Numbered from the stretch's first letter, positions 3,526 through 22,960 are shown. The stretch: 64,000 nt of DNA from Candidatus Melainabacteria bacterium (GCA_016193285.1 JACPSL010000018.1:91535-155534), one strand, 5' to 3'. The notes: a model not told the origin generated them from the letters alone. A program made the numbers and translations.

Positions 3526-3569
3526 AAATTTGTTCGTGGAGGTATATCTCAACTCGGGAGAATATTGTC

Positions 3570-3911: not shown

Positions 3912-3943
3912 AGAAGCAGGTATGTTATTTTATTTAGTTAACC

Positions 3944-5388: not shown

Positions 5389-8300
5389 ATGAAAAAATTA
5401 ATTTGTTTAATCTTCGTATTGTCTATTAATCTTCCAACCCTTGCAGCACTAGGCATTAACTATGGAAATCTTTTTACTATTCCTCTTTTAGAAAATCATA
5501 AAGATAAAAGTACTATACTTCTTGCTCAGTCACAAACAAGTTTTTCAGGATCTACTAGTGGTAACAATGAAACACCATTTTCTGACACAGTTAAGATGTA
5601 CCTGTCCTCTACCCCTTCAAACTTACTTGGAGCTTATGAACATTACAAACCTCAATCAGCTCATCTAAACTTAACTGGTACATCTCAAACTACTCCAGCA
5701 TTTACTATTACAGCAAATGCTACTTTTACAAATCAAGCTTGGTCAATCACTGATGTTCAATTAAGTGGCACAGTTCCTACCAGCTATACTGTTCCTGAAC
5801 TTATAATCGATGATATTGTTGCTCAAATTGGAGGTCCTCAGTGTACTGGAACTAAATTTATTGCTGTAAAAACAATGGGTGGTCAAGATTATCTCATTAC
5901 TTGGATGATTGACGGCACCTCAACCAATGAAACTCGTCCTGTTTTACTTCCTAGACTTCAATTAACTCCATGGATAGGTGATAAGAGAGGCTGGCTTATT
6001 AAAATAAGAAACACAAACCCAGAAGGCGGGTTTGATCCTTATGCAGTTCCTTATGGACAAGACAATGTAAACCTAAAAAATTTAATCGATCCAATCATAA
6101 ATGTAATAAACAGATTGTCTAATAATCAAGTCAGGATGTTTTATGAAATAAAAGAAGCTTATTATAATGGACCTACAAATATAAGTTGCCAACTAAATCA
6201 AAACCCAATTATAAGTAATGTTCTTACTAATCTAGGAATCAATGAAACAAACTGGCGAAGCAGCTTTGACTTTTCAGTATACACAATGTACAAAATATTG
6301 CTTGATGCCTTCAAGCAGTATGAGAATTGTTATATACCACAAGGTACTGCCGCTTTTTGTGCTGCTGGTGCATGGTATCCAGATATTATTACTTCCTCTT
6401 TCAACGAAAGAACTTTTCAACATGAATTTGGACACACTATAAAATTTCCTCATCCATATTTAAATATCAATTGTGAAGGTGGCAATCCTCAAAACGTAAT
6501 AGCAAACCAGGTATTTGACAGCTGCAATGATTCACCAAGAAGCCCAACTTCAAATATGGGCCCAAACAATGGATTTTGGTGGAGTCCTATGGAAAGAGCT
6601 ATTCTTGGCTGGTTAAAAGGAGCTCAAGTAAAATCAATATCAAAGACTGGAATATATGACTTATACAGTGATAACGACGATCTTACTTCTGATCCTAGTA
6701 AACCTCTTATCCTTCAAGTACCAGTTAAAGTTAATAACATAACTGATTTTATTTATTTAACGCTACCAAATATAAGTGATGTAACTTACTGTTATAGTAG
6801 GACTGGTGAAACAGAGTTCATAGATCATTACAGTATGGGAGTTGAACTTAGTGCAGCGCACAATTTAAATCTTGATTTTACTGCATCAAGATTTGGTAGA
6901 AGTCTTTATTCAGTTGGATTAAAAGTATATAGTTACAACAATCAACCGTACAATGATGGTGACTGGCAAGCAGAAAGAAATGCTACATTCAAAAATACTA
7001 TACAACCTGATCAAGAAGTTCATCTAAATTGGCAAGGTACAGATGTCGTAATAAGAAATTTAGAACGCAGCGGTAATCATGCAAGAATTAGTATTCAATA
7101 CAACGAAGACATAACTTTATCTTCCTCATCAAGCTCATCAAGTAGTTCAAGTTCATCTTCATCATCAAGTTCGTCAAGTTCCTCTTCTAGTTCATCTTCT
7201 TCTAGCTCAGGTGGTTCATCATCATCATCATCTTCTTCTTCTAGTTCATCTTCCTCAAGTTCATCTTCTTCTAGCTCAGGTGGTTCATCATCATCTTCTT
7301 CTTCTAGTTCATCTTCCTCAAGTTCATCTTCTTCTAGCTCATCAAGTAGTTCAAGTTCATCTTCATCATCAAGTAGTAGTTCTTCCTCAGGTGGTTCATC
7401 ATCATCTTCTTCTAGTAGTTCATCATCTTCTTCTTCAAGTAGCTCTTCAGGTGGAGTAGATGGTAGCTCATCATCAAGTAGTAGTTCTTCTTCAGGTGGT
7501 TTCTCTACTTCAACAACCTCAAGTACTTCTACAGGTGGTACTTCTACCTCAACAACTTCAAGCACTACTTCATCTACAACCTCAAGTACTACAACTGGTG
7601 GTGCTCCAAGTTTAGGTGGTGGTGGTCTGTTTTTACCTTTAGAACCTCCTCCACAAACACCAGTACCTATTACATCTCCAACACCAAGTCCACAAGTACC
7701 TGAAGAGCCAATAACATCTCCTCCTCCAATTGCTACGGATCAAGGAAATGAAACAAAAAGTAATGAGAAGGAAATTGAACTTATTTTATCCTCTCAATTA
7801 CCTAATACTGCTTGGCAATCGCTTACACCAGATGAGTTGTCTAGTAATGTTAGTCTTGCATATAGTGATTCAAGCCTAACATTTGAAATTAAGCTTGCAA
7901 ACGATATTTCTAGTTCAGATATAGTTGCTCTTGATCTGGTAGATAGTAAGGGTACTGAATTTAAAAATATTCCGTTTACATTAACTTCAACTTCAAAAAA
8001 TTTAAATAATTTTATTTTAAGTTTTCAAATGCCTAGTAATATTGCTAAGGGCAAAATGACATTTAAACTAACATCAAATAAGGATACTACCTTTATTGGA
8101 TCAGTTAGAATTGTTAATTCTTTAAACATTGTAGCCATTACTTCTGGAAAAGAAAAAATCATTTCAAAACCAGTTATTAATAAGATTCAAGTAAAAAAGA
8201 AAAATAACAATGTTATCTTAGGTTTATTAGGCAATGGCTTTATAGATAAAAAACCACTTTTTACTAAAGATGGTAAGAAAACAGTCTTAAGAAGTAATAA

Positions 8301-8502
8301 AGGTAGTGAAAACACTATAGTTACAGTATTCCCAAGCAATCTAAATATAAACCAAAAGATAACTTCTATTTCAAAAAATGGCAGGAGCCTTACGATAAAG
8401 TTAGTTTTAAATAAAGAAGATCTTAAAGAACAAGTTCAAGGTATTGTTACTGTTGCTACCCCAAGAGGAATTACATCCAAGCAATTTGTAATCGATAAAT
8501 AA
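5389..8502 (+). CDS. Large secreted, probably cell-surface, protein. It has an N-terminal metzincin-like zinc-protease region (HEFGHTIKFPH), a poly-Ser/Gly/Thr stalk, a Pro-rich linker and a C-terminal beta-rich domain.
   Basis: Signal peptide. The HExxHxxxxxH spacing matches metzincins with Gly replaced by Lys. Roughly 150 residues are almost pure Ser. PLEPPPQTPVPITSPTPSPQVPEEP linker. Confidence 0.6.
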   Translation: MKKLICLIFVLSINLPTLAALGINYGNLFTIPLLENHKDKSTILLAQSQTSFSGSTSGNNETPFSDTVKMYLSSTPSNLLGAYEHYKPQSAHLNLTGTSQTTPAFTITANATFTNQAWSITDVQLSGTVPTSYTVPELIIDDIVAQIGGPQCTGTKFIAVKTMGGQDYLITWMIDGTSTNETRPVLLPRLQLTPWIGDKRGWLIKIRNTNPEGGFDPYAVPYGQDNVNLKNLIDPIINVINRLSNNQVRMFYEIKEAYYNGPTNISCQLNQNPIISNVLTNLGINETNWRSSFDFSVYTMYKILLDAFKQYENCYIPQGTAAFCAAGAWYPDIITSSFNERTFQHEFGHTIKFPHPYLNINCEGGNPQNVIANQVFDSCNDSPRSPTSNMGPNNGFWWSPMERAILGWLKGAQVKSISKTGIYDLYSDNDDLTSDPSKPLILQVPVKVNNITDFIYLTLPNISDVTYCYSRTGETEFIDHYSMGVELSAAHNLNLDFTASRFGRSLYSVGLKVYSYNNQPYNDGDWQAERNATFKNTIQPDQEVHLNWQGTDVVIRNLERSGNHARISIQYNEDITLSSSSSSSSSSSSSSSSSSSSSSSSSSSSSSGGSSSSSSSSSSSSSSSSSSSSSGGSSSSSSSSSSSSSSSSSSSSSSSSSSSSSSSSSSSGGSSSSSSSSSSSSSSSSSSGGVDGSSSSSSSSSSGGFSTSTTSSTSTGGTSTSTTSSTTSSTTSSTTTGGAPSLGGGGLFLPLEPPPQTPVPITSPTPSPQVPEEPITSPPPIATDQGNETKSNEKEIELILSSQLPNTAWQSLTPDELSSNVSLAYSDSSLTFEIKLANDISSSDIVALDLVDSKGTEFKNIPFTLTSTSKNLNNFILSFQMPSNIAKGKMTFKLTSNKDTTFIGSVRIVNSLNIVAITSGKEKIISKPVINKIQVKKKNNNVILGLLGNGFIDKKPLFTKDGKKTVLRSNKGSENTIVTVFPSNLNINQKITSISKNGRSLTIKLVLNKEDLKEQVQGIVTVATPRGITSKQFVIDK
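7120..7560. repeat. Highly repetitive poly-Ser-coding tract (TCA/TCT/AGT/AGC microsatellite-like) within the 1037-aa protein.
   Basis: Direct reading. The antisense ORFs 7095..7565 and 7211..7459 are artefacts of this low-complexity tract. Confidence 0.85.
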
Positions 8503-8531
8503 AACTCTACCACAAGTGATAAAATAAAAAT

Positions 8532-9680
8532 ATGCAATTTGAAACAAAAGCAATTCACATTGGTCAAGAACCAGATCCAACTACTGGTGCAACTATTACA
8601 CCTATTTATCAGACATCTACCTTTACACAAGATGCTCTAGGAAAACACAAAGGCTATGAATATTCAAGAACTGGAAACCCTACACGAGCAGCACTTGAAA
8701 CTGTTTTAGCTTCACTTGAAAATGGAAAATATGGGCTTTGTTTTGCTTCTGGATTAGCAGCTACAGTAAATGTTTTATGCTTGTTACAAGCTGGTGATGA
8801 GATTTTAGCTTGTGATGATCTTTATGGCGGTACAATTAGACTCTTTAACAGAGTATTTCCTAACTTCAATATTAAAACTACTTATGTAGATGGTACAAAT
8901 CAAAAAAACTTTGAAGATGGAATTACATCAAAAACTAAATTAATCTGGATTGAAACACCAACTAACCCTATGCTAAGACTTTGTGATATAAGTGCTATTA
9001 GTAAAGTCGCAAGACAAAGGGCGGATGGCCATCTGCCCCTACTGGCTGTTGATAATACATTTGCAAGCCCATTTTTTCAAAAGCCTCTTGATCTTGGTGC
9101 AGACATTGTAATCCATAGCACAACTAAATACTTAGGTGGGCACAGTGATGTAGTTGGTGGCACAGTAATTGTAAGTGATAAAAATATTTATGAAAAAATA
9201 AAGTTTTATCAAAATGCTCTTGGTGCAACACCAGGACCACTTGATTCATGGCTCATACTAAGAGGGGTTAAAACCTTGGCACTTAGAATGAAAAAACATG
9301 AAGAAAATGCAATCAAGGTAGCAGAGTTTCTAGAAAAACATCCAATAGTAAAAAAAGTAAATTACCCAGGCTTAAAATCTCACCCTCAGTATGAACTTGC
9401 AAAAAAACAAATGACTGGGTTTGGTGGAATGATATCTTTTGAAGTAAAAGGTGGAAGAGACATTGTTAAAAAAATAGTTGAATCAACTAAGCTCTTTGCA
9501 CTTGCTGAAAGTCTTGGGGGAGTTGAATCGCTGATTAATTTCCCGTTTACAATGACTCATGCAGGAGTTCCTGATAATCATAAAGCAAGGCTTGGTATTA
9601 CAGAAAGTTTAATTAGACTTTCAGTAGGAATTGAAAATACAAATGATTTAATAGATGATTTAAGACAAGCACTAAGTTGA
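8532..9680 (+). CDS. Cystathionine gamma-lyase / gamma-synthase family PLP enzyme (MetB/MetC/MccB type).
   Basis: 382 aa. It has the Cys/Met-metabolism PLP-enzyme blocks YSRTGNPT and TKYLGGHSDVVGG, where the lysine binds PLP. Confidence 0.8.
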   Translation: MQFETKAIHIGQEPDPTTGATITPIYQTSTFTQDALGKHKGYEYSRTGNPTRAALETVLASLENGKYGLCFASGLAATVNVLCLLQAGDEILACDDLYGGTIRLFNRVFPNFNIKTTYVDGTNQKNFEDGITSKTKLIWIETPTNPMLRLCDISAISKVARQRADGHLPLLAVDNTFASPFFQKPLDLGADIVIHSTTKYLGGHSDVVGGTVIVSDKNIYEKIKFYQNALGATPGPLDSWLILRGVKTLALRMKKHEENAIKVAEFLEKHPIVKKVNYPGLKSHPQYELAKKQMTGFGGMISFEVKGGRDIVKKIVESTKLFALAESLGGVESLINFPFTMTHAGVPDNHKARLGITESLIRLSVGIENTNDLIDDLRQALS

Positions 9681-10659: not shown

Positions 10660-11889
10660 GTGGTATACTGCAAAGTAGCCATGATAGAAAGAGAGCTATA
10701 TAGTTTAATAGAAAAAGATAGCAATCTAAGACAAATGTCTTTTGTTGCAGGGCCAAGACAAATAGGGAAAACAACTCTTGCTAAAGAATTATTGCATAAG
10801 CATAATTGCTCAGAGTTTTATTTTAATTGGGATTTAGCTTCTACAAGATCAAATTATAGAGAAAATTCAAATTTTTATTCTAACAACATAGGGAACAGGA
10901 AGAAGGTCTGGATTTGTTTTGATGAAATCCACAAACTAAGAAAATGGAAAAATATATTAAAAGAGCATTTTGACAAAAATGAAGGCAGAATGAAAACAAT
11001 AATTACTGGAAGTGCAAGGTTAGATCTGTTTAGAAAATCTGGAGATAGTCTTGCAGGAAGATATTTTTTATATCATTTGTTACCTTTAACGCTAAGTGAA
11101 ATTTCAGCAAGGGGAAAAAATGTTGAAGAGAAGCTAGCATCAGCAATAGACTTTATTGAATTAAGAATAAGTAGGAAAGTTAAATCTAAAAACTCAATTG
11201 ATCAGCTACTAAGATTCAGTGGTTTTCCAGAGCCCTTTAAAATAGCTTCTGAAGATTTCCATACAAAGTGGAAAAAGTCTTATGTTGACAGGCTAATCTA
11301 TGAAGATTTGAGAGAGATATCACAGATTCAAGACCTGGAAAAAACTGCACTATTAATTGATTTACTGCCAGAAAGAATAGGAGCACTTTTATCAATTAAT
11401 TCACTAAGTGAAGATTTAGAAGTAAATTTCAGAACAGCTAAAAATTATCTTAAAGCATTAGAATTAACTTACATATTGTTTTTTATTAAACCCTATACAA
11501 AAAATATTTCAAGATCGGTAAGAAAAGAACAAAAAGTCTATTTCTATGACTGGACAAGAATTAACAATGAATCAAATAGATTTGAAAATTATGTTGCATG
11601 TGAACTTTTTATACTAGTTTCCTTCTGGAATGATTCTGGATATGGATATTATGACTTGAATTTTATTAGAACAAAAGATGGAAAAGAAACAGACTTTCTA
11701 ATTATAAAAGATAAGAAACCCTGGTTACTTATAGAGGTAAAGCTTGCGTCAAAGGAAATAAAGTCGCATCATATTACACAAGCAAAATACTTAGGTAATA
11801 TTCCGGTTATTCAGATAGTTTATGAAGGAAGTGTAATAAAAAGATTAGATAAGAATTTGTTTATAATTTCTGCTGAAAAGTTTTTTTAA
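10660..11889 (+). CDS. AAA-family ATPase with a DUF4143-type C-terminus.
   Basis: Walker A GPRQIGKTT, Walker B-like WICFDEIH, and the architecture typical of the ATPase-DUF4143 family. The true start may be the ATG at 10681. Confidence 0.55.
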   Translation: MVYCKVAMIERELYSLIEKDSNLRQMSFVAGPRQIGKTTLAKELLHKHNCSEFYFNWDLASTRSNYRENSNFYSNNIGNRKKVWICFDEIHKLRKWKNILKEHFDKNEGRMKTIITGSARLDLFRKSGDSLAGRYFLYHLLPLTLSEISARGKNVEEKLASAIDFIELRISRKVKSKNSIDQLLRFSGFPEPFKIASEDFHTKWKKSYVDRLIYEDLREISQIQDLEKTALLIDLLPERIGALLSINSLSEDLEVNFRTAKNYLKALELTYILFFIKPYTKNISRSVRKEQKVYFYDWTRINNESNRFENYVACELFILVSFWNDSGYGYYDLNFIRTKDGKETDFLIIKDKKPWLLIEVKLASKEIKSHHITQAKYLGNIPVIQIVYEGSVIKRLDKNLFIISAEKFF

Positions 11890-12203
11890 AGAGATCTTAG
11901 CTCCATTGTAGAAGAAGTCAGAACCAGAATTTGGGAGCGTGGGTATCTATTGTGCCTAAGAAAATAGTGTTACACCTTTTACAGAAATTTACCTATGAAA
12001 TCTCTCAGACTTTTTCAGTGAAGCCTACCTAGTAGTAAAAACCTTACCTCTTTTCTTTCAAGTGGCAATTTTCAATTTAGATTAGGGTTATCCTAAAGTT
12101 GATCGGGGTATCCTTAAAAATTTTTGTTATGTTCTGGTGATCACTGAGCTTTCACTGACAACCTTACTATACTTAGGGAAGAACATTAATGTAGGAGGTA
12201 CTT

Positions 12204-12398
12204 ATGAAAGAAATAATTTATAAGTTACTGGTTATAGCATTTCTTATTCCAACTTTACAACTTCCTGTTTTTGCAGAAGGTGATTGTATTCTTGATGAAG
12301 CAGGAGTTTGTCAGGAAGGGGAATGCAGACTGGAAGATGGAGAGATCGGTGTTTGCAGACAATCAGGTGATGATTGTGTATGCTCTCCAAATAACTAA
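12204..12398 (+). CDS. Small secreted, acidic, six-cysteine peptide (64 aa). It is the first gene of the tad operon.
   Basis: Strong RBS GGAGGT. Signal-peptide-like N-terminus, then EGDCILDEAGVCQEGECRLEDGEIGVCRQSGDDCVCSPNN. There is only a 2-nt gap to the downstream tadE. No Flp G/XXXXEY motif. Confidence 0.5.
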   Translation: MKEIIYKLLVIAFLIPTLQLPVFAEGDCILDEAGVCQEGECRLEDGEIGVCRQSGDDCVCSPNN

Positions 12399-12400
12399 CA

Positions 12401-12928
12401 ATGTTTAATTTTAGATCAGATAAGGGGAATGTGCTTCTTGAACTAGCTTTAGTTACTCCACTTTTAATAATGTTTATTGGAGTAATTTTTGAAGCTTCAC
12501 GAATGTATTATATCCAAAGTGCTTTAGAGTATGGAGCTAAAGAAGCTGCACGAATTGGTTCATCAGTTAAAGAAAGTGTTGATGCTAACTACATGAGTAA
12601 GAGTACTATTTCACGTTATGAAATTGAAAACTTAATAAAAAATAGTGTGAGAGTAATGGGTGTAATTGAAGAAGGAGCACAATTTATGATTAGATACTTA
12701 AATCCAGCTGGTAATGAAATTAGTGGTGTTCAGGATAATTTGCCATTTGACAGAAAAAATGATCCCGGTGCAATTGATTTTGTAGAAGTAGAAATTACAT
12801 ATCCTGGAAGTGGACCTGGAGTAAACAGTCCAATTCCTGTAGTAATAAATCCAGGAAATATTTTTAAAGACAGTATAACTTTAAGTTCAAAAGCAATATT
12901 TAAAATTGAAGGAAGGTTTGAAAGATGA
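12401..12928 (+). CDS. tadE: TadE-like pseudopilin.
   Basis: N-terminal LLELALVTPLLIMFIGVIFEASRMYY, the TadE/TadF signature TM segment. 175 aa. Confidence 0.7.
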   Translation: MFNFRSDKGNVLLELALVTPLLIMFIGVIFEASRMYYIQSALEYGAKEAARIGSSVKESVDANYMSKSTISRYEIENLIKNSVRVMGVIEEGAQFMIRYLNPAGNEISGVQDNLPFDRKNDPGAIDFVEVEITYPGSGPGVNSPIPVVINPGNIFKDSITLSSKAIFKIEGRFER

Positions 12929-13428
12929 AAAATATTTTAAGAAGAGATTTAGGAGCAATAATGGTAGAAGCTGCATTTGCAATACCAGTGTTTTTATTTT
13001 TAATTTTTGGTTTACTTGAACTTTCAAGAATAATGTACATTAAAAATGCATTAAATATCGCAGCTCAACAAGTAGCAAGTTCAATTTCAATACATGCAAA
13101 AAGGACAGCAACCTATGATGTTGCTTCTTTTTCAACTTATGCAGCCAGCATTCATTATCCAGGTGCTGTGTTTAGCTCAAGTCAGTTTTCTTTTAATGTT
13201 ACAAATGCTTCAAACAGTTCTACAGTTACAAATGGACAAGCTGATGGAATAGCAAGCACAAAAGTTGTAGTGAATGCTATTTTTCCACCACCAAATAGTG
13301 GTGTTAAAGTTCCAACTTTTGATCCAGGTAGATTATTTGGTGCACCAATTTTTGGGCGAAATGGTATACAGCTTTCAGCACAAGCAATTTGTTTTCTTGA
13401 ACGCTCAAGGAGACCTGTATTAAATTAG
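12925..13428 (+). CDS. Second TadE/TadF-like pseudopilin.
   Basis: AIMVEAAFAIPVFLFLIFGLLELSRIMYIKNAL. Its start overlaps the previous gene's stop by 4 bp. Confidence 0.7.
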   Translation: MKNILRRDLGAIMVEAAFAIPVFLFLIFGLLELSRIMYIKNALNIAAQQVASSISIHAKRTATYDVASFSTYAASIHYPGAVFSSSQFSFNVTNASNSSTVTNGQADGIASTKVVVNAIFPPPNSGVKVPTFDPGRLFGAPIFGRNGIQLSAQAICFLERSRRPVLN

Positions 13429-13439
13429 GAGAAGTAAAA

Positions 13440-15083
13440 GTGAGACATAAAGTAAGAAATAATCCTGGATCAATTATACCCATGGCAGCTCTTTTAATGA
13501 GCGTGATTATTTCTTTTTCAGCACTTGCAATAGATATGAGTTATAACGGTATTGTAAGAAGTTCACTTGAAAAAGCAACTGAGTCTGCAGCTGTAGCTGG
13601 AGCACAAGAATATTTTAGAAATGGTGCTGATGCAGGAAAAGCAGTAAATGAAACTATTCGGATCTTTAAAATGAATGTTTCTAATGACACAATGATTGGT
13701 AACTATTACTCTGCTACTGGTATGGGTAGTCCAACAACATTAACTTATTCAAAAACATTTACATCAGGTGATAACTTAAGAGCTTTATTTAAACAACAAC
13801 CAATTACTTTAACCATCATGACTGACTTAAATCGCGGTAAAGTAACAGTAACTTCAGCACATACTACAAAATCATACTTTGCAAAACTGTTTACAAGTAA
13901 TTCAATGATCTCAATAACAAGAGAAGCAGAATTACCACCATATGATGTTGTATTTGTAGTTGACTTATCGGGCTCAATGAGATTTGCTACAGTAAGTACT
14001 TATATTGGAACTGCATATGTACAAACACAAGGAATGTCAGGTTTAGGACCACTGACTACAGATGTGATTATTACTCAGTCCCAGTATCAGCCAGGCATAG
14101 GCACAATGATTACAGCAAACGGCCTTGTGACAACTCTTTCTAATATCACTGATGTAGTAATTAACACACCAGGAACTGATATTCCTGCAACTGCAACCTA
14201 TAGTAGTGGCAAAAGTATTTATATCAATGATCCTGACAGAGGATTTATAGTAAATCACGATATGGCTAGTGGGCTTAGAAGAATAGCTTTAACTGGTTAC
14301 AGAATTAATCAATTAGCAGCATTAAATGTATCTGGTGAAGATAAACAACTTGCACAAACTTTTAATGACAATAAAAGTACAAATCAAGCAGTTGTAGACA
14401 ATTATTTTACTAGAGCAGCTTCTTATATAGAACCAGTTGCAAGTGCAATAGATGGTGTTAGTGCTTTTATTGATACTGTAAAAATATATGGTTCAGCTGC
14501 TTTAAAGTTAGGTTTAGTAACTTTTGAAAGTAGTTCTTATACTGCTGATATGACATCTAACTGGTATTGTAGTGAACTAGAAGGAGGAAATGTTTCTAAA
14601 TATATGAAAAGAACATTACCTTACTTAAGCCTTGTAAATCCTGTTAACTTTGATACTGTTACTAATAAACTATCCATCATGGCAACAAGTGGTACTGGCT
14701 CCTTTACAAATCCAATTGTTACTTATAGTTATCCTAATGGTGGTACAAATATAAATGCTGGACTTACTAATGCAAAGTATGTATTTGACAAAAGCGACAG
14801 ACCAAATTCTGAAAAAGTAATTATTCTTTTTACTGATGGTGAACCAACAGCACATACTTTTAGTGCACTTGGGCAAAAAGTTAAATCACTAACTGATGCA
14901 AAAATTAAAATTTATTCAATAGTACTTACTTTAGCTATATCACAAACTACTATTAATAATTTTAAATATCAAGTTGAAACTATTGGAAAAGCAGAGCCTG
15001 TAATATTTATAAATGATCCTGCAAAACTAAAAAATGCATTTCTTCAAATTGCTGATGATTTGGGATTAAAGTTGGTTAATTAA
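13440..15083 (+). CDS. tadG: TadG-like pilus-assembly protein with a von Willebrand factor A domain.
   Basis: TadG N-terminal region (MAALLMSVIISFSALAIDMSYNGIVRSSLEKATESAAVAGA). vWA MIDAS motif DVVFVVDLSGSM, and later ILFTDGEPT. Confidence 0.7.
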   Translation: MRHKVRNNPGSIIPMAALLMSVIISFSALAIDMSYNGIVRSSLEKATESAAVAGAQEYFRNGADAGKAVNETIRIFKMNVSNDTMIGNYYSATGMGSPTTLTYSKTFTSGDNLRALFKQQPITLTIMTDLNRGKVTVTSAHTTKSYFAKLFTSNSMISITREAELPPYDVVFVVDLSGSMRFATVSTYIGTAYVQTQGMSGLGPLTTDVIITQSQYQPGIGTMITANGLVTTLSNITDVVINTPGTDIPATATYSSGKSIYINDPDRGFIVNHDMASGLRRIALTGYRINQLAALNVSGEDKQLAQTFNDNKSTNQAVVDNYFTRAASYIEPVASAIDGVSAFIDTVKIYGSAALKLGLVTFESSSYTADMTSNWYCSELEGGNVSKYMKRTLPYLSLVNPVNFDTVTNKLSIMATSGTGSFTNPIVTYSYPNGGTNINAGLTNAKYVFDKSDRPNSEKVIILFTDGEPTAHTFSALGQKVKSLTDAKIKIYSIVLTLAISQTTINNFKYQVETIGKAEPVIFINDPAKLKNAFLQIADDLGLKLVN

Positions 15084-17149
15084 TACGAGGAAATCTTATT
15101 TTCTCTTGCAAGTCTCATAGCTTCCTGAGCTTGTGCATAACGTGCAGTTTCAATTCTCCATGCTGCATTTAGTAATTGTTGTTGTCTTTTAAGTTTATCC
15201 TCATTTTTTTTAAAATTATTTAGTTTTCTAAGTTCACTATATTCATTGTTTAAAGAAATGTTGTTATCTACTTTCTTATTTGTAGACTCATTATATTTCC
15301 CTGCATCTAAAGGCTCTTTCATATCAGGACCTTTTTCATCATCTTTCTTTATGTAAGGTTTAAATGGTGCTAGCTCATCAAAATCATGATATGGAATTTC
15401 TGGTTTAGCAAGCTTGGATATTTTAGCCACCGAAGTTGGTCTTACAATTTGTGGTGAAACAACAACAAGTAATTCTGTTTCACCTTGTCTAAATGACTTG
15501 CTTCTAAATAAAGTCCCTAAGATTGGGATGTCACCAATGCCTGGTACTTTACGGAGGTTTCTTGTATTGTCTTCTCTTAAAAGTCCACTTATAGCAAATG
15601 CTTGTCCTGTTTCAAGTTCAACCTGTGTTTGTGTTCTTCTTGTCCTAAATGCAGGTGGTCTTACTGATGTTGAACCTACTGGTACAACAAGGTTTGAAAG
15701 ATTAGTATCAATATCTCTTATTTCAGGACTAAGTTGTAAATAAATTTTATTTTCACCAGTTACTGTTGGTAGTATTACAAACCTTATTCCAAAAGGTTCA
15801 TAAGTAATATCTTGGCTTGCACCACCAGCTGTAAAAACTGATCTTACAATTGGTACTTCTCCACCAGCTAAAAATGAAGCTGGCTCTCCGTTTGCAACTA
15901 CAAGATTCGGTTCAGCAAGTGTTTTAATTTCTCCTCTTTCTTGAAGAGCCTGAAGAACAACTCCAATACCATTATCTGGATTAAAGATTGCTCCAGTTAC
16001 ACCATCTCCAATTGTTTGTGCAACAACTGATCCACCTGCAACTGAACCATGACCAAAACCAAATTCAGGAGCTGAACCTCCACTTGCAGCTTTAAATTCA
16101 GTTAAATTTGCTATTGAACCAATTTGTCCTAAAAGCTGCCCGATTCCACTCCCACCAATAAATGTTCCACCTTGAATTGTGCTGCCGCCAAACGTTGTAT
16201 TAAAACCTAAATTTCTTGCAACACTTCTTGAGACTTCAAAAAACCTTATAGCAACTGATACTTGTGGAGGATCTTTTACTGTTAAAAAACTAATTACTGA
16301 TCCATTTTGTGTAGTTGCAATTACACCACGACTAAGATTTGCATATCTATTTGAGGTAAATTTTATTGGGTCACGTGCACCAAAAGATACAGCTGAACCT
16401 TGGGTTTGAGTTTGCCCTTGAGAATCTGAATTTGCAGATATGTCATATCTTCCTGCCAACCCATCAACAATTTGTCCACCAGGTTGACTTATAATTTTTA
16501 TTCCTTGATCCCCTACATACACACCTGCAATTTGAAGAGCTCTGGCAATTATCTCTGCATTTGAAACTTCTCCTTTTAAAATTATTTTTCCACTAGTTGC
16601 TGCTGTAGATGATGACGTAGTAGAGCTGGAACTACCTGCAGTTGGAGAAGGAGTAGAAGAAGATGCTGCTGCTTGTGATAATGAACTAGTAGCAACTGAT
16701 GTTTGTTCGCTTGAAGTTTTTGATGTAGAACTTATATTAGAACTTGGTGGAATGTATTCTACTGTAATATTTTTATCTAGGTCTTGTAGTTGCTTAGTTA
16801 AATAATCAATATCAGGCCAAACTGAGATATCAAATCTTGCTGGATGTGAAGTTTCTTTTTCCCACATAATTATTGTACTTATACCTAATTTTTTAGCTCT
16901 AACAAAAACCTCTTTTTCATTTAGCACCTGAAGATCTACAATTGCTGGATCACTTACTGCAACTCTTAAAATTGTTTTATCACTTGATATGATTTCACCT
17001 TTTCCAAGGTTTAATTTTTTTATTTGAGTTTTATCTTGATAGTAATCTGCTTCAAGAAAGAAAACTTTTGAACTTACAGGGATTATTGTTTGAATACAAA
17101 AAGCACTAATTAAAGTTAATAAAAATAAAGTCTTAATGAATGGCTTCAC
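15080..17149 (-). CDS. cpaC: Tad secretin CpaC/RcpA. It carries a Ser/Thr-rich linker and an unusual Lys/Gln-rich coiled-coil C-terminal extension.
   Basis: Secretin C-domain blocks GGEVPIV...LAEPNLVVANGEPASFLAGGEVP...IPILGTLFRS...ELLVVVSPQIV. Its 3' end overlaps the tadG 3' end (convergent TTAATTAA). Confidence 0.8.
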   Translation of the reverse strand: MKPFIKTLFLLTLISAFCIQTIIPVSSKVFFLEADYYQDKTQIKKLNLGKGEIISSDKTILRVAVSDPAIVDLQVLNEKEVFVRAKKLGISTIIMWEKETSHPARFDISVWPDIDYLTKQLQDLDKNITVEYIPPSSNISSTSKTSSEQTSVATSSLSQAAASSSTPSPTAGSSSSTTSSSTAATSGKIILKGEVSNAEIIARALQIAGVYVGDQGIKIISQPGGQIVDGLAGRYDISANSDSQGQTQTQGSAVSFGARDPIKFTSNRYANLSRGVIATTQNGSVISFLTVKDPPQVSVAIRFFEVSRSVARNLGFNTTFGGSTIQGGTFIGGSGIGQLLGQIGSIANLTEFKAASGGSAPEFGFGHGSVAGGSVVAQTIGDGVTGAIFNPDNGIGVVLQALQERGEIKTLAEPNLVVANGEPASFLAGGEVPIVRSVFTAGGASQDITYEPFGIRFVILPTVTGENKIYLQLSPEIRDIDTNLSNLVVPVGSTSVRPPAFRTRRTQTQVELETGQAFAISGLLREDNTRNLRKVPGIGDIPILGTLFRSKSFRQGETELLVVVSPQIVRPTSVAKISKLAKPEIPYHDFDELAPFKPYIKKDDEKGPDMKEPLDAGKYNESTNKKVDNNISLNNEYSELRKLNNFKKNEDKLKRQQQLLNAAWRIETARYAQAQEAMRLARENKISSY

Positions 17150-17221
17150 AGTACTCTTATCAGAACAATAAGCAATAGTAAATGTTCCTTTTTTAGGAAT
17201 TTTTTATCTTGCTCAAGATAA

Positions 17222-18202
17222 TTATTGTGGCAGACCACTCCCAAGTGTTGAAATTAATTGAAGTACAGGAGGTCCTACACTTACTGCTAAAACACATGGA
17301 AAAATAAACAGTGCCATTGGAAGCATCATTTTAATTGTCATTTGTGCTGCTGTTTCTTCTGCTTTTTGTCTTCGTCTAACCCTTAAAAAATTTGCCTGGC
17401 TTCTAAGCACACCTCCAATACTAGAACCAACTTTTTCTGACTGAATTATAATCCTTGCAAGACTTTTTAATTCTTCTGAACTTGTTCTTGTTCCTAAGTT
17501 TAACCAACAAGTAGTCCTGTCTTGTCCTAAATTCATTTCTCTGTTTGTAAGAATAATTTCTTCAGCTAGATCTTTTCCTTTATTCCCAATATTTGAAGCA
17601 ACTCTTAGTAATGACTGATCAATTCCCATACCAGCCTCAGTACATATGACTAAAAGATCTAAGGCATCTGGCAAGATGCGATCAATGCTTTGTTGTCTTT
17701 TTGCTACTAGTTTATCTAAAAAAATATTTGGAAATATAAATCCAACAGCACCTACAATAAAAGCAAGAAACATTCCAGTTTGTAAATTTTTTCCTATTAC
17801 TGAAAGAATAAAAAATGGAATTACTGCAAGTACAATAGCTAAGGTTATTTTAATTGTATATAAAAACTGAAGTGCTTTTTTATCCCTGAAGCCAGCTTTA
17901 ATTAAAAGCTTTCTTGCAGCTGACTGTTTACTGTAAGGCACCTTCTCGCTAAACCAGCTCCCTACTTGTTCTCCAAGAGGAATTAAAACTCTTTTTGCAA
18001 AACTTTCATCTTTATCTTCTTTATCTTGAGTGTCGGGGGTGTACTTTGCAGATTCGCTTTTTTCAGATAACCAAAATTGTAATCTTTTACTTATTTCACT
18101 TGATTCAGCAGATATTGCTCTTGTCCTGTAGATTACTATGCAAATTAAAAATATTGCACCAAATGCACATACACTACTTAGAATAATCATTAGGTTTGTC
18201 AT
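17222..18202 (-). CDS. tadC: TadC (GspF-like inner-membrane platform protein).
   Basis: T2SS-F domain pattern, 326 aa with three TM regions. It sits in a tadB-tadC pair downstream of cpaF. Confidence 0.7.
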   Translation of the reverse strand: MTNLMIILSSVCAFGAIFLICIVIYRTRAISAESSEISKRLQFWLSEKSESAKYTPDTQDKEDKDESFAKRVLIPLGEQVGSWFSEKVPYSKQSAARKLLIKAGFRDKKALQFLYTIKITLAIVLAVIPFFILSVIGKNLQTGMFLAFIVGAVGFIFPNIFLDKLVAKRQQSIDRILPDALDLLVICTEAGMGIDQSLLRVASNIGNKGKDLAEEIILTNREMNLGQDRTTCWLNLGTRTSSEELKSLARIIIQSEKVGSSIGGVLRSQANFLRVRRRQKAEETAAQMTIKMMLPMALFIFPCVLAVSVGPPVLQLISTLGSGLPQ

Positions 18203-18212
18203 TTGTCTTTTC

Positions 18213-19208
18213 CTACACCTCCAACTTAGTAATTTTATTTATCATTAAATAACCAATAGTCATAGAAATAACACACCCAATTAAAATATTTTTTCCCATT
18301 GGATCTTTTACAAAGGTACTGTAAGTTTCAGGAGCAATTAAGTTCAACATTATATAAATGCCAATAGGTAAAGAAAGCAGAAGATAAGCAGACATCTGGC
18401 TTTCGGCAGTAAGAGCTTTAACCATTCCTTTTAATCTAAATCTTTCTCTTACGGTTTCACCGATACTTCCAATTAATTCTGAAAGATTACCACCAAGTTC
18501 TCTATTTATTATTATTCCAGTACATAAAATTTGTACATCCATTGCATTAACTCTTGCAGAAAGATTTTGTAGTGCTTCATTTAAAGATAGTCCTAAATTA
18601 ACTTCAATAATTACTTTTCCAAATTCTTCACCAAGTGGAGAAGGAAACTCTTCTGCTAAGTGTTTTAATCCTGTCTGAACATCAAGCCCTGCTCTTAAAT
18701 CAGAACCAAGCATGTCAAGTGCCTGGGGTAATTGTTTAACAAAATCATCTATCCTTTTAGCTTTTAAAAAATTTAATAACCCAAAAGGGAGAATTGCAAA
18801 GACTAGTCCTATTAAAGGAATATGGAAAAATAAATCAACTAACATTCCACCAATTAATCCAACAAGTCCTATAAACAATAAAAATTCTCCAACTTTAATT
18901 TTTAATCCGCTTTGCTCAATTAAAGTTAAAAGAAAATCAGATCTGTTTTTTAACAATCTTTGAAGTAAATCATTTAACCAAGGAATTGTACTAACCCGTA
19001 AATCCCTTCTTAGTGTTTGTTCTTGATTTTCAGTAACTGAACTTTGGGATACTTCACTGTATCCAAGGGTTTGTATATTAATTACTTGTTCAACTCTTTG
19101 ACTTTGATATTTTAAATTTTCTTTTCTTTGCCAAAAATAATAAATGGATAAGCAGATTAATATCACTACAAAAAATACAAAGACTGAAAAAATTATTGGA
19201 GCTAGCAT
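18213..19208 (-). CDS. tadB: TadB (GspF-like platform protein).
   Basis: 331 aa T2SS-F family. It overlaps the cpaF stop. Confidence 0.7.
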   Translation of the reverse strand: MLAPIIFSVFVFFVVILICLSIYYFWQRKENLKYQSQRVEQVINIQTLGYSEVSQSSVTENQEQTLRRDLRVSTIPWLNDLLQRLLKNRSDFLLTLIEQSGLKIKVGEFLLFIGLVGLIGGMLVDLFFHIPLIGLVFAILPFGLLNFLKAKRIDDFVKQLPQALDMLGSDLRAGLDVQTGLKHLAEEFPSPLGEEFGKVIIEVNLGLSLNEALQNLSARVNAMDVQILCTGIIINRELGGNLSELIGSIGETVRERFRLKGMVKALTAESQMSAYLLLSLPIGIYIMLNLIAPETYSTFVKDPMGKNILIGCVISMTIGYLMINKITKLEV

Positions 19209-20599
19209 AGATTAAACATATTTGGAGGGAGCTTATACCCCATTGCCTCAATTCTTTTTGAAAACACTGGTCTAATACCTGATGGTTTAAATATACCCTT
19301 TACTTTACTGTTTTCATCAACTCCTTTTTGCTCAAATGTAAAAATGTCTTGGGTTGTGATAACACCATTTTCCATGCCTGTTACTTCTGATATCTGGGTA
19401 ACCCTTCTTGAGCCGTCAGAAAATCTGTTTAACTGACAAATTAAATTTACTGCTGAAGCAATTTGTTCTCGGATTGCTCTTTGTGGCAATTCAATCCCAG
19501 ACATTAAACACATTGTTTCTAATCTGCTAAATGCATCACGGCTTGTGTTTGCATGTAATGTTCCCATACTGCCATCATGACCTGTATTCATTGCTTGTAA
19601 AAGATCAAGTGCTTCACCAGATCTAATTTCTCCTAAGATTATTCTTTCTGGTCTCATTCTAAGTGCATTTTTAACTAAGTCTCTTTGTGTAATTTCACCT
19701 TTTCCTTCTAAATTTGGTGGTCTTGTTTCAAGTCTAACTACATGATCTCTTTGAAGTTGTAATTCTGCAGCATCTTCAATAGTTACAACTCTTTCGTGAT
19801 TAGGTATGTATCTTGAAAGTGCATTTAAAAATGTTGTTTTCCCAGAACCAGTACCACCAGAAACAATAATATTTAACCTGCAAAGCACGCAAAGTTTTAA
19901 CATCTCACACATGTTTTCAGTCATTGCTCCAAACTTTATTAAATCTTCAAGCATGAATTTTTTCTCTGAGAATTTTCTAATTGATAAAGCTGCCCCATCT
20001 ATGGAAAGGGGCAGAACAATAGCATTAACTCTTGAACCATCTTTTAGCCTTGCATCTACCATTGGTGAGGATTCATCTACTCTCCTACCAACACCACTTA
20101 CAATGCGGCTTATAACTTTCATAAGATGAAACTCATCGTCAAATACAATATCTGTTTTTTCCAGCACTCCTTTTCTTTCTACATAAACTTTTTCAGGACC
20201 ATTTACTAAAATATCGTTTACAGTTGGATCTTTAAGCAGTGGTTCAATAGGACCTAGTCCTAAAATGTCATCTATTAATTCATCAATTAATTTTTTCCTG
20301 TCACTTAAACCTAAAGGAGTTCCTTCTTCCTGGAGTAAAGTATCAATTAAACTAATAATATTTTGTTTTGTAGATTCATCATTTAAGTTTGAATTTAATT
20401 TGCTTGTGTCTAACTCGTCGAGTAATTTACTATGTAATTTCTTTTTTAATTCCTTATAGCCACCTAAAAATTTAGAAGGAGTGGCAGAGGGCTTTTTTTG
20501 TGCTTGAGGACAAGCTTGTTCAGTGCCTGCATTTTCCTTTAAAGGTTCTTCTTTTTTTGAAAATATACTTTTTGAAAATTGTTGTCCTGGATTATTCAT
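19202..20599 (-). CDS. cpaF: CpaF/TadA secretion ATPase.
   Basis: Walker A GGTGSGKTT, followed by Asp box, Walker B and His box; TGHDGSMGTLHANTSRDAFSRLETM. Confidence 0.85.
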   Translation of the reverse strand: MNNPGQQFSKSIFSKKEEPLKENAGTEQACPQAQKKPSATPSKFLGGYKELKKKLHSKLLDELDTSKLNSNLNDESTKQNIISLIDTLLQEEGTPLGLSDRKKLIDELIDDILGLGPIEPLLKDPTVNDILVNGPEKVYVERKGVLEKTDIVFDDEFHLMKVISRIVSGVGRRVDESSPMVDARLKDGSRVNAIVLPLSIDGAALSIRKFSEKKFMLEDLIKFGAMTENMCEMLKLCVLCRLNIIVSGGTGSGKTTFLNALSRYIPNHERVVTIEDAAELQLQRDHVVRLETRPPNLEGKGEITQRDLVKNALRMRPERIILGEIRSGEALDLLQAMNTGHDGSMGTLHANTSRDAFSRLETMCLMSGIELPQRAIREQIASAVNLICQLNRFSDGSRRVTQISEVTGMENGVITTQDIFTFEQKGVDENSKVKGIFKPSGIRPVFSKRIEAMGYKLPPNMFNLC

Positions 20600-20602
20600 T
20601 TT

Positions 20603-21802
20603 TTAAAACCAATTTAAAATTCCTTTCTTTTTAATACTTTTTTCTTCAGTGCTTGAAATATGTTTGCTTGGAGCTTCAGAATCTCCTTCTGGTATTTCTG
20701 ATTTTGAAATTTTTCCTGCTAGAATTTTATAAGATGTTGCAAGCGGGGAATTAGGAGAAAATTCTAAAATAGGTCTTCCATAATTTGATGCTTCAACACA
20801 TAACTGCCAGTCATTTGGCAAGGCATGGTAAATGCTGTGATCAAGTTGCTTCTGAACTAAGGCAGGTTCTAAACTTCCAATGTACCAATCCTGCCTATTA
20901 ATTACAGGTTTAATTTTATTGTCAAAGGTGCCAAGCTCTTTTAAAATCTGAATAAAAATTCTATTGTCTCTAATAGCTAAAAGATCAAATGTCGTAAGTA
21001 AGAGCAAGTCATTAGATTTTTGAATAAAAAACATGGATATTTCATCAAGCATTCGTGCAGAAGTATCAATTAAAATAAAGTCATAAGTTTCAGAAGCAAT
21101 TTCTATTAAATGTTCTAAGCCAGAAGCAGTTATTTCGTTGTAATCACTGGTTTTAATCAGGCCACCTATAAGTGCTAGGTTTTTCCCAATAGTGCTTACA
21201 GCATTTGTAAGATAATGTTCATCCAGGCTTTTATCTTGTTTACAAATATCAACAAGTGTACACTTTGGAATTGTGTTTAATAAAACGGTTACATGATTAG
21301 AAAATCCTGCAGCATCAATGATTAATGTTTTTTTCTGGTAAGTGTTTGCAAGTGCATAACTAAGATTTACTGTTGTAGTACTTACACCTGTACCACCTTT
21401 GTAACTAAGTAAAGTAATAACCTTGGCTGTCTTTCTTGTAGGCATATGACCTTTAGGTGCTGTATTTAAACGATCTAAACAAGAAATGAGTTCAAATCTT
21501 TTAAATGGTTTAACTAAAAATCCAACTGCACCAAGTTTAATTGCTTCAATTGCTAAATCTGCATCTTTAAAATCTGAGACTATTAAGAAATGCTTCCCGA
21601 CTAAATTTGATGAATAGTCAGCAAGAATATTGTGAGCATTTGTTTGGTTTCCTGAAAAATCTAAAATTATTAAGTTACAACCTGGCAGTTCTTGATAATC
21701 CTTGACTAAGGATATCTCTAATTGGCCTTCCCATACATTGGATATGGTTTCTTCCCAATATTTTTGTTCGTTTTGTTGTGTTATAACTAGTATTTTAAGC
21801 AT
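20603..21802 (-). CDS. cpaE: CpaE/TadZ-like protein: N-terminal receiver-like domain plus a MinD/ParA-type ATPase.
   Basis: Deviant Walker A LSYKGGTGVSTTTVNLSYALA. Confidence 0.7.
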   Translation of the reverse strand: MLKILVITQQNEQKYWEETISNVWEGQLEISLVKDYQELPGCNLIILDFSGNQTNAHNILADYSSNLVGKHFLIVSDFKDADLAIEAIKLGAVGFLVKPFKRFELISCLDRLNTAPKGHMPTRKTAKVITLLSYKGGTGVSTTTVNLSYALANTYQKKTLIIDAAGFSNHVTVLLNTIPKCTLVDICKQDKSLDEHYLTNAVSTIGKNLALIGGLIKTSDYNEITASGLEHLIEIASETYDFILIDTSARMLDEISMFFIQKSNDLLLLTTFDLLAIRDNRIFIQILKELGTFDNKIKPVINRQDWYIGSLEPALVQKQLDHSIYHALPNDWQLCVEASNYGRPILEFSPNSPLATSYKILAGKISKSEIPEGDSEAPSKHISSTEEKSIKKKGILNWF

Positions 21803-21892: not shown

Positions 21893-22960
21893 ATGACTAT
21901 GTTAAAAATTTTCTTTACTTTATCTTTAATTTTTCTACTTCAGTTAACTTGTTTTGCAAATACTTCTTCTCCTCTATTTAGAGGATATATTGTAAACAAA
22001 ACATTAATTCCAATGAAACTTAAGATATATGAAATTGATAAGGATTCATATTATTTAGCAGAGAGAAATTTTGATGACAATTCAATTGTACCGGTTTTAA
22101 ATTTAAAAGTTACTGTTGAAAACAAGGAGGATTATAACTTAGCTTTTGAAGATTATAAAATATTTATTCCAGAGTCAACAAAACTTATTGGACATATAAG
22201 TGAAATTATTCCTCCTAAAAGCTTTGACAGAAAAGGTTTTTACAAAGTTACTTTTAATAAAGCAATTTGTCCTAGTGGACAGACAATTTATCTGATGTCA
22301 GATATAGTTTCTGGCGAATTAACAAAAACATATAATCCTTTACATCATTTAGGAAAAAGTACTTTAAGTTTACTTGGTGGTTCACTTGCAGGAGCATTAT
22401 TTTCATACCAGCTTGGTGGATTAGGTTTAATAGTAGCAACTCATGGTTATTCACTTGCAGCAGGTGCAGGAATCGGTGGGTTGTTTGCTACAGTTGGTGG
22501 TTTTACAAGTAGCGGAAAAAGTGCAACTATAGAACCTGGTAATGAACTAACATTAACTCCTCTTGATGAAGTAAGTTTAGAACAATTAAAACAAGTTACA
22601 TGTCTAAAAGATCAAGTTTCCCAAACAGCTGACAAGTCTGAACTTAGTCTTGAGATTTTAAAAGTCAAACAAAAAAAAGATATTATGGGAGATAAGATTC
22701 TTAAAATAACTGTTAAAGTTATAAATAATTCAGATGAGAAATATAGACTAAGTAATTTTTACTTAAAGGACTCACAAGGGAAAGAATATTCACCTACGTT
22801 TGTTGATTTAAATGATGATATGTTTATTGACTTTCCTCCAAAACTAACTAAAATAGCTAAACTTAATTTTTTTGTAGATTATCCTAAGGCTACACACTGG
22901 CTTGTTTTAAAAAATGGGACTTTTAGTAAGGAGCTTGGTTCTTGGAAAGTAATTGACTGA
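21893..22960 (+). CDS. Secreted protein with a central glycine-zipper segment. It is a paralog of 45063..46148.
   Basis: Signal peptide. GGSLAGALFSYQLGGLGLIVATHGYSLAAGAGIGGLFATVGG compares with ATHGISVLAGGGIGASAGIVGS in the paralog. Both share the IIPP...F.RKG N-domain. Confidence 0.45.
   Translation: MTMLKIFFTLSLIFLLQLTCFANTSSPLFRGYIVNKTLIPMKLKIYEIDKDSYYLAERNFDDNSIVPVLNLKVTVENKEDYNLAFEDYKIFIPESTKLIGHISEIIPPKSFDRKGFYKVTFNKAICPSGQTIYLMSDIVSGELTKTYNPLHHLGKSTLSLLGGSLAGALFSYQLGGLGLIVATHGYSLAAGAGIGGLFATVGGFTSSGKSATIEPGNELTLTPLDEVSLEQLKQVTCLKDQVSQTADKSELSLEILKVKQKKDIMGDKILKITVKVINNSDEKYRLSNFYLKDSQGKEYSPTFVDLNDDMFIDFPPKLTKIAKLNFFVDYPKATHWLVLKNGTFSKELGSWKVID

Follow-up and report, generated by a model that had tools for sequence, protein, structure and literature searches.

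A cysteine-rich secreted peptide in the tip operon of a Tad pilus cluster from Candidatus Melainabacteria

Does a Tad pilus locus that appears to lack both its pilin and its prepilin peptidase represent a new kind of machine, and what is the role of a small cysteine-rich secreted peptide encoded at its head? These questions are raised by a locus at positions 12,204 to 21,802 of a 64-kb stretch of DNA (hereafter the window, meaning the whole stretch that was analyzed; GC content of approximately 32%). The stretch comes from a metagenome-assembled genome (MAG) of an uncultured Candidatus Melainabacteria bacterium (GCA_016193285.1; JACPSL010000018.1:91535-155534; locus tags HYY52). A first-pass annotation had described the locus as a Tad/Cpa system without a recognizable Flp pilin or prepilin peptidase, led by the gene for a 64-amino-acid (aa), six-cysteine peptide (NCBI protein MBI2995878.1, locus tag HYY52_04150, on a contig of 163,886 bp). 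Our results favor, with a probability of about 0.6, the interpretation that the window contains one half of a canonical Tad/Flp (type IVc) pilus system, namely the assembly machine together with a single tip module, and that the peptide is most likely associated with the pilus tip.

Gene content of the locus and the missing pilin

Pfam confirmed the genes named by the first-pass annotation along with their positions. On the plus strand, the peptide gene is followed by two pseudopilins with prepilin sites and a large minor pilin. These are TadE-like pseudopilin 1 (12401..12928; Pfam TadE, 1.7e-10; prepilin-type N terminus ...DKG/NVLLE), TadE/TadF-like pseudopilin 2 (12925..13428; Pfam TadE, 7.8e-11; N terminus ...RDLG/AIMVE), and a 547-aa TadG-like protein with a VWA domain (13440..15083; Pfam Tad at the N terminus, plus VWA). 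They converge on a minus-strand operon that is transcribed in the order TadZ/CpaE, CpaF, TadB, TadC, secretin. TadZ/CpaE (20603..21802) is a ParA/MinD-like ATPase (Pfam AAA_31, 1.1e-12) with a degenerate receiver domain (Response_reg, 26.7 bits, under the cutoff), and it is followed by the CpaF/TadA secretion ATPase (19202..20599; T2SSE, 1.2e-63). The TadB-like (18213..19208) and TadC-like (17222..18202) platform proteins each match T2SSF at 1.7e-17. The secretin, of the RcpA/CpaC type (15080..17149; Secretin, 7.9e-39; T2SS-T3SS_pil_N, 5.7e-15), is the final gene of the operon, as had been annotated. The Pfam matches therefore place CpaF/TadA, TadB, TadC, TadZ/CpaE, two TadE-domain pseudopilins, and TadG in the window.

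The pilin, its peptidase, and RcpC were not recovered from the same DNA. Searches of the 64-kb window with the Flp, TadV, and RcpC proteins of relatives returned no flp, tadV, or rcpC (tblastn; best E = 0.14), and tblastn and Pfam together bear out the earlier statement that flp, tadV, rcpC/cpaB, and tadD are lacking there. A TadD-like gene or tetratricopeptide repeat (TPR) lipoprotein pilotin was found neither in the window locus nor in the related loci L004, L005, L015, and L017; pilotins of the TadD/CpaD type are not universal among Tad systems. According to Pfam, the remaining large open reading frames (ORFs) of the window have housekeeping functions only. Beyond the left edge of the window, the next 10 kb likewise contain housekeeping genes alone. 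Instead, the tip operon is adjoined upstream by an AAA_14 and DUF4143 ATPase gene (10660..11889, plus strand; AAA_14, 8.9e-27; DUF4143, 5.1e-24), which fills the position of flp-tadV-rcpC in relatives.

That position is apparent from the loci of related bacteria, which we reached via orthologs of the VWA-bearing TadG (42 proteins, 48 to 70% identity). In L004, L005/L010, L007/L012 (L012 is the same species as L007), L009, and L015, two to three canonical flp genes (typical sequence, MNKLVGFLKDEEG/ASMAEYALLLGL), together with genes for Peptidase_A24 and RcpC, directly precede tadE-tadE-tadG(VWA). The whole series from flp to tadG converges on a secretin-tadC-tadB-cpaF-tadZ operon. In L007, a series of flp-tadV-rcpC-tadE-tadG-like genes is contiguous with tadE-tadE-tadG(VWA). 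As reconstructed from these gene orders, the ancestral cluster comprised two to three flp genes, tadV, rcpC, an optional small tadE with a 330-aa tadG-like gene, an optional cysteine-rich peptide gene, and tadE, tadE, and tadG(VWA). By the same comparison, these Melainabacteria have in common that their two operons converge and that the secretin gene comes last, and this conserved order does not set the window apart.

The corresponding genes of the MAG were located through RcpC. A concatenated Flp, TadV, and RcpC profile matched only RcpC proteins, and Flp and TadV were then found from the RcpC context. One of the RcpC homologs from this profile search, P0072 (MBI2995131.1; Pfam SAF and RcpC), precedes the peptide (MBI2995878.1) by 747 accession numbers. 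Since the peptide is approximately feature number 830 in its assembly, the two proteins belong to the same deposited genome. On the Logan contigs that contain P0072 (L017 to L019), rcpC is accompanied by two flp genes (L017 9031-9195 and 9291-9458; Pfam Flp_Fap; FIRDEEG/ASMAEYALLLG) and by a tadV gene for a 165-aa Peptidase_A24 protein (L017 9513-10010; GMGAGDVKLL motif). The same block encodes a 128-aa TadE, a 330-aa TadG-like protein with an N-terminal Tad domain, and a DUF4143 fragment. Furthermore, a single sequencing run (SRR12113426) yields both L019, with the flp block, and L002, with the window locus. A scan of a genome collection with an RcpC alignment gave only four loci, none of them from this MAG. 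The Flp pilin (G/XXXXEY), the TadV peptidase, and RcpC are present on this other contig and not in the window, which has the secretin. We are confident that the genome encodes flp, tadV, and rcpC elsewhere. The first-pass annotation was correct in guessing that the pilin is encoded outside the locus, and the search for flp and tadV homologs that it proposed recovers both beside P0072; its picture of a system without pilin and prepilin peptidase was not borne out.

How the cluster came to occupy two sites can be read from its flanks. It is highly probable that a true rearrangement split the cluster in this genome, between the first and second minor-pilin modules. Because the flp block is contiguous with the locus in relatives, the unusual composition of the locus reflects rearrangement rather than a new type of machine. 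The window retains the ancestral right flank (the DUF4352 gene), and L017 retains the ancestral left flank, with Wzz, Poly_export (minus strand), and NTP_transf_5 as in L015. To the left of the ATPase, the window has a globin gene and a cysteine/methionine (Cys/Met) metabolism gene, followed by at least 20 kb of housekeeping genes. The other half ends, on L017, in a 102-aa C-terminal DUF4143 fragment. Both breakpoints adjoin DUF4143-family ATPase genes that are only ~25% identical to each other. In a nucleotide comparison, L017 to L019 shared no sequence with the window, and the two halves are thus not simply adjacent.

Alternatively, the split could be an artifact of assembly or binning, in which case flp-tadV-rcpC-tadE-tadG-like would truly lie directly upstream of the peptide, as in L007. 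All three of the Logan contigs that carry the peptide (L001 to L003) begin at window position 11998, and both L017 and L018 terminate 60 nt past the DUF4143 fragment; ends that coincide in this way are indicative of branching in the assembly graphs at both junctions. We nevertheless judge an artifact to be improbable. The ends of L017 to L019 share no sequence with the window, and an independent Logan contig, L020, runs from 7345 through the Cys/Met enzyme, the globin, and the ATPase to 12022, where it overlaps L001 by 25 identical bases. The depositors' contig spans the ATPase-peptide junction; the L020/L001 overlap agrees with this contig but does not bridge the junction. Short-read assemblies of several runs break at identical bases on both sides of the split (11998-12022 and the ends of L017 and L018), which suggests that a strain variant or repeat created assembly-graph branch points at the two junctions. 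Whether the split is real or an artifact, the genome is one with flp and tadV.

The peptide and its family

The peptide gene (12204..12398, plus strand) was characterized from its sequence, a family alignment, and AlphaFold2. It follows an intergenic leader (11890..12203, plus strand) with a GGAGG ribosome-binding site 6 nt before the ATG, and only 2 nt separate its stop codon from the ATG of tadE, to which the gene is probably translationally coupled. A signal peptide (approximately 12204-12275) precedes a mature sequence of 40 aa (residues 25-64; 12276-12395) with six cysteines in the pattern C-x7-C-x4-C-x9-C-x6-C-x-C and a net charge of -9. The peptide has no G/XXXXEY Flp motif and no Pfam match. 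The ORF, its cysteine pattern, the 2-nt gap to tadE, and the lack of a Flp motif are all as first described. In each of the 11 members of the family, the N terminus is of the Sec type, with a K-containing n-region, a hydrophobic core of 15 to 17 residues, and VFA|E; the set of features that defines a Flp pilin (charged leader, G/XXXXE[YF], hydrophobic helix, Flp_Fap) was not found in the 64-aa peptide. We also considered a lipoprotein or pilotin, and set this aside for want of a conserved lipobox; a cysteine occurs near the cleavage site in the L004 sequence only. Within the leader, a direct repeat (GGKTATCCTWAA, at ~12086-12098 and ~12106-12118, 20 nt apart) is a candidate that may bind a regulator. 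A scan upstream of the peptide gene detected no sigma-70 consensus promoter and no terminator.

The peptide belongs to a small family. A word-index search with the peptide matched only itself, and the family emerged only when 1.84 billion representative proteins were scanned in full with HMMER, which gave eight representatives. With the members from L004 and L006, the family comprises 11 sequences of 62 to 81 aa, and one named member is also from Melainabacteria. Two further matches, obtained in a metagenome scan with the motif G[IV]CQEGEC (L013 and L014), were rejected as high-GC false positives. The six cysteines, G34, E40, L43, and G49 are invariant and G39 nearly so. All members share the framework C-x7-8-C-x4-5-C-x9-C-x6-7-C-x-C and carry a net charge of -7 to -9 once mature. 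An analysis of nonsynonymous to synonymous substitution rates (dN/dS) on the peptide core met with saturated synonymous sites. We have little doubt that the peptide is genuine, conserved, and secreted; the family is undescribed and has no Pfam entry.

The genomic position of the gene is shared among several relatives. It is the first gene of the tadE-tadE-tadG operon in four loci, with a spacer to tadE of 2 nt in the window, 10 nt in L006, 28 nt in L015, and 61 nt in L004. L004, L006, and L015 each have a homolog in the equivalent place, with all six cysteines invariant, which speaks against a chance ORF and upholds the earlier proposal of a secreted product linked to tadE. Conservation upstream of tadE was only partial, with the peptide absent from L005/L010, L007/L012, and L009. 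In L004 and L015, the gene sits between rcpC and tadE, alongside three flp genes. In L006 (GCA_964602915.1), the peptide accompanies tadE-tadE-tadG alone, apart from the remaining machine. There, the module is bracketed by two pairs of AhpC/Redoxin and polyprenyl synthase genes (L006 7050-14202; pairs at 7050-8566 and 12563-14202), as if it had been inserted with, or had caused, a duplication. For the family member P0045, which is on a 621-nt contig, the downstream gene begins 14 nt away. P0053 and the RcpC homolog P0086, both from contigs of 4,242 nt, are probably on one contig.

Presence and absence of the gene bear on its history. In the TadG identity matrix, the window, L004, and L015 group together, and peptide-bearing L006 is the most divergent, a distribution that suggests an old gene with repeated losses. 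Relatives have the same module without the peptide, so the peptide is not needed for pilus assembly. The gene is real, lineage restricted, linked to the tip module, and dispensable. Two other loci contain related observations. In L016, the homolog P0046 (3104-3292) lies upstream of the gene for a 542-aa secreted protein (3462-5090) with thrombospondin type 3 repeats, and this protein has a sub-threshold match to a papain-fold toxin (Gln_amidase). The plus-strand tad operon of L011, a locus without the tadE-tadE-tadG(VWA) module, ends in a different secreted ORF (12571-12807, plus strand) of 78 aa with 10 cysteines (…CITVGKPVGAECHFEDCECATDVCLNGLCVECADDTDCQDSKQCVANKCE) and no Pfam match. Given this ORF, cysteine-rich secreted mini-proteins recur in these loci.

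Modeling of the peptide indicates a compact fold. AlphaFold2 applied to nine mature sequences predicted three beta strands (residues 16-18, 24-30, and 33-38; predicted local distance difference test [pLDDT] score of 85.6) that carry C3, C4, and C5/C6. A Foldseek search of the model against PDB gave no match. The structure prediction that the first-pass annotation had proposed thus returned a small three-stranded beta structure. EGF, knottin, and cis-defensin patterns were also considered and had no tool match in support.

There is a weak resemblance to beta-defensins, in which three antiparallel strands form a sheet and the disulfides are C1-C5, C2-C4, and C3-C6. The family is similar to them in the spacing from C1 to C5 (C-x6-8-C-x4-C-x9-C-x6-C), in having G-x-C at C2 and I-G-x-C at C4, and in the predicted three-stranded sheet with C3, C4, and C5/C6 on strands. 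It differs in its bacterial origin, in a net charge that is strongly negative rather than cationic, and in ending with C-x-C instead of C-C. When compared with the beta-defensin framework C-x4-8-C-x3-5-C-x9-13-C-x4-7-C-C, the first four spacings fit (7-8, 4-5, 9, and 6-7), but the end is C-x-C in 11/11 members. Pfam Defensin_beta (PF00711) matched 3 of the 11, the best being P0046 with 19.4 bits versus a cutoff of 21 (E = 0.0011); the window peptide was unmatched, and neither the Pfam threshold nor a cationic charge was reached in the family. A profile match to PDB spheniscin-2 had an E value of 0.3. In an hhalign comparison with an alignment of eight beta-defensin sequences, C2 to C5 were in register (P = 7e-4; probability, 26%), and the score of 18.4 exceeded 200/200 column-shuffled controls (mean, 8.3; standard deviation, 1.8; maximum, 14.2). 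The resemblance is probably a likeness of framework that arose by convergence.

The pilus tip and alternative roles for the peptide

If the peptide has a partner at the tip, TadG is a candidate. The metal ion-dependent adhesion site (MIDAS) of its VWA domain is intact (D175, S177, S179, T436, and D466), and these residues are invariant in 27 orthologs. VWA metal sites of this kind bind carboxylate ligands. The AlphaFold2 model of TadG (pLDDT, 87.5) has a long N-terminal pilin helix (8-60) and the VWA domain, and Foldseek matched it with BatB, the anthrax-toxin-receptor VWA domains of TEM8/CMG2, integrin I domains, and the Gram-positive tip adhesins RrgA and GBS104.

Previous work provides a frame for the operon as a whole. 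Homologs of TadE, TadF, and TadG form heterotrimeric tip complexes, small Flp-like adapter pilins can attach to the tip cluster, and one genome can hold several interchangeable tip modules apart from the main cluster (Herrou et al. 2025, PMC12075869). AlphaFold models in the same study suggest that Tad pili generally have tips of this kind. In addition, the tip pilin TcpB docks the secreted protein TcpF (PMC12075869; see also PMC9565799 and PMC10120004). The MAG has two tip modules, the 128-aa tadE with the 330-aa TadG-like gene on L017 and tadE-tadE-tadG(VWA) in the window. In that frame, the peptide would be the fourth, non-pilin gene of the VWA-type tip module.

Our proposed sequence of events is as follows. 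The peptide would be exported by Sec and signal peptidase I, as its signal peptide implies, and oxidative folding would produce the predicted acidic beta mini-domain with three disulfides. It could then associate with the TadE/TadF/TadG tip, as a bound accessory or a small cargo, perhaps with a conserved carboxylate docking at the MIDAS of the VWA domain in TadG. The peptide would be displayed or released at the tip as the pilus extends through the secretin. Since its gene is the first of the TadE-TadF-TadG operon in four independent genomes and is probably coupled to tadE, the peptide most likely acts with the tip complex. Its location within a minor pilin operon, combined with a Sec signal, in the window, L004, L006, and L015 is also what characterizes secreted factors of the TcpF/CofJ type. 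Even so, based on gene order and analogy, we hold the specific claim that the peptide acts at the pilus tip tentatively, at somewhat short of even odds. A narrower version is that the peptide would be a beta-defensin-like (trans-defensin) acidic mini-protein, loaded on the Tad tip via the TadG MIDAS and delivered to a target surface or cell. The phylum includes predators of algae. We regard this delivery scenario as very improbable, and the same applies to its corollary that the tip operon would be a four-part module with a small effector.

Several observations weigh against our interpretation that the window is part of a canonical Tad system with a tip-associated peptide. Independent short-read assemblies stop short of bridging the ATPase-peptide junction, where the Logan contigs provide only the 25-nt overlap. 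Placing both contigs in one genome depends on accession numbering and on the binning of the MAG, and the other, 71-kb contig is represented solely by Logan contigs no longer than 17 kb. The link between peptide and pilus is one of genomic association. Furthermore, the peptide is absent from L005/L010, L007/L012, and L009 although these loci keep the orthologous tadE-tadE-tadG(VWA) module, and the homolog P0046 (L016) adjoins a TSP_3 secreted protein on a 10-kb contig that has no tad genes.

Some of these observations would be expected if the peptide were an independent secreted factor, such as a defensin-like toxin, an inhibitor, a metal-binding peptide, or a signal, that is merely cotranscribed with minor pilins. 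Under this alternative, the occurrence of P0046 outside tad loci, next to a protein with a weak papain-fold toxin match, the loss of the gene from several orthologous tad loci, and the different cysteine-rich ORF that closes the tad operon in L011 could all be accommodated, as could the weak beta-defensin-like signals (Defensin_beta in 3/11 members, best 19.4 versus 21 bits; hhalign P = 7e-4). However, the gene is immediately upstream of tadE in 4/5 contexts with readable DNA, with spacers down to 2 nt, and in L006 it moved only together with tadE-tadE-tadG. A net charge of -7 to -9 is, moreover, the opposite of that of membrane-active defensins. We consider an independent factor unlikely, though the most credible of the alternative roles. 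It is also conceivable that the peptide helps to assemble the minor pilins or the secretin in the periplasm, for example as a chaperone or as a pilotin substitute that replaces TadD. No TadD or pilotin gene was seen in the window or related loci, and on our reading of the operon the peptide would be exported and coexpressed with the pseudopilins. Yet the family has no conserved lipobox and does not resemble TPR-type TadD, and relatives with the same secretin and minor pilins manage without the peptide; this role appears very doubtful.

The remaining alternative is a strong version of the idea with which we began, a Tad-like machine without Flp and TadV that exports or polymerizes the six-cysteine peptide in place of a pilin. 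All that speaks for it is that flp, tadV, and rcpC do not occur in the 64-kb window. These genes are present in the same assembly, and the signal of the peptide is of the Sec type and not the prepilin type. TadE1 (DKG/NVLLE) and TadE2 (DLG/AIMVE) need TadV because they have G/xxxxE prepilin sites. Finally, L004 and L015 each carry three canonical flp genes alongside the peptide gene, so that the peptide does not take the place of the pilin in the fiber. We assign this alternative a negligible probability, and we return to the interpretation of a canonical, split Tad system whose peptide is most likely tip associated.

Neighboring features and comparison with known systems

A few other features of the locus deserve mention. 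Divergent from tadZ/cpaE is a gene for a secreted or membrane protein of 355 aa (21893..22960, plus strand; Pfam DUF4352, 1.7e-07) with a signal peptide and a glycine-zipper-like stretch. Orthologs with 49 to 51% identity occupy the equivalent place in L004 and L005, and a similar-sized gene is found there in L015. Based on position, this gene may be an extra, undescribed component of this type of Tad locus, and we consider that probable. The convergent stops of tadG and the secretin gene overlap by 4 nt (15080-15083), with no terminator-like structure between them. The overlap is 8 nt in L005 and L015, and a sulfotransferase gene is inserted there in L004. Within the secretin, residues ~135-200 form a Ser/Thr/Ala-rich low-complexity linker behind the N-terminal pilus domain, and residues ~600-689 form a Lys/Glu-rich C-terminal extension whose length is highly variable among relatives (proteins of 683 to 830 aa). 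Farther upstream, a 1037-aa ORF (5389-8502, plus strand) has no Pfam match at E ≤ 1e-5, and Logan assemblies break within it (L008 ends at 7161 and L020 starts at 7345).

Taking both contigs into account, the system resembles the Tad/Flp (type IVc) clusters of Aggregatibacter (flp-tadV-rcpCAB-tadZABCDEFG) and Caulobacter (pilA-cpaA-F). It shares with them the Flp G/XXXXEY motif, TadV, and RcpC/CpaB, all on the other contig, and the secretin, TadZ/CpaE, CpaF/TadA, TadB, TadC, TadE, TadF, and TadG. In contrast to those clusters, the Melainabacteria have two convergent operons with the secretin last, an order common to all relatives. The MAG differs further in lacking TadD/CpaD, in having its cluster split over two sites, and in carrying a cysteine-rich gene before tadE.

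Two other systems provide closer parallels for the tip. In Myxococcus xanthus, the Kil "Tip" modules (KilL/M/N, equivalent to TadE/F/G; PMC12075869) are likewise TadE-TadF-TadG triplets, with more than one per genome, that can sit apart from the main cluster, as in L006, and that include a large TadG with a variable exposed domain. That variable domain is a VWA in our case. The small gene KilO encodes a Flp-like adapter pilin, whereas the small gene here encodes a disulfide mini-protein predicted to be exported by Sec. Moreover, the Melainabacteria organism is not known to be a predator. The second parallel involves type IVb pili, with TcpF of Vibrio cholerae and CofJ of enterotoxigenic Escherichia coli (ETEC) (PMC9565799, PMC10120004, PMC6048534). 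Like the peptide, these are soluble, Sec-exported proteins encoded beside minor pilin genes, and they set a precedent for a pilus tip that carries or exports a small partner. They differ in size (~36 kDa, compared with ~4 kDa) and are unrelated in sequence, and for the peptide both docking and pilus-dependent export are putative.

Our study shows that what had been described as a pilin-less and peptidase-less Tad system is an ordinary split cluster and not a new secretion system. What remains of interest is a small, lineage-restricted family (~11 sequences) of acidic, disulfide-rich secreted peptides at the tip operons of Melainabacteria. A search of the literature found no papers on Tad/Flp pili in Melainabacteria, and to our knowledge Tad pili have not been found to secrete cargo. 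If the fold of the peptide should prove to be beta-defensin-like, it would bear on the origin of that fold. Tip binding, if it occurs, would make the peptide the first small component of a Tad pilus, subunit or cargo, to be described that is not a pilin, and it would extend the recent idea that bacteria customize the tips of their Tad pili.

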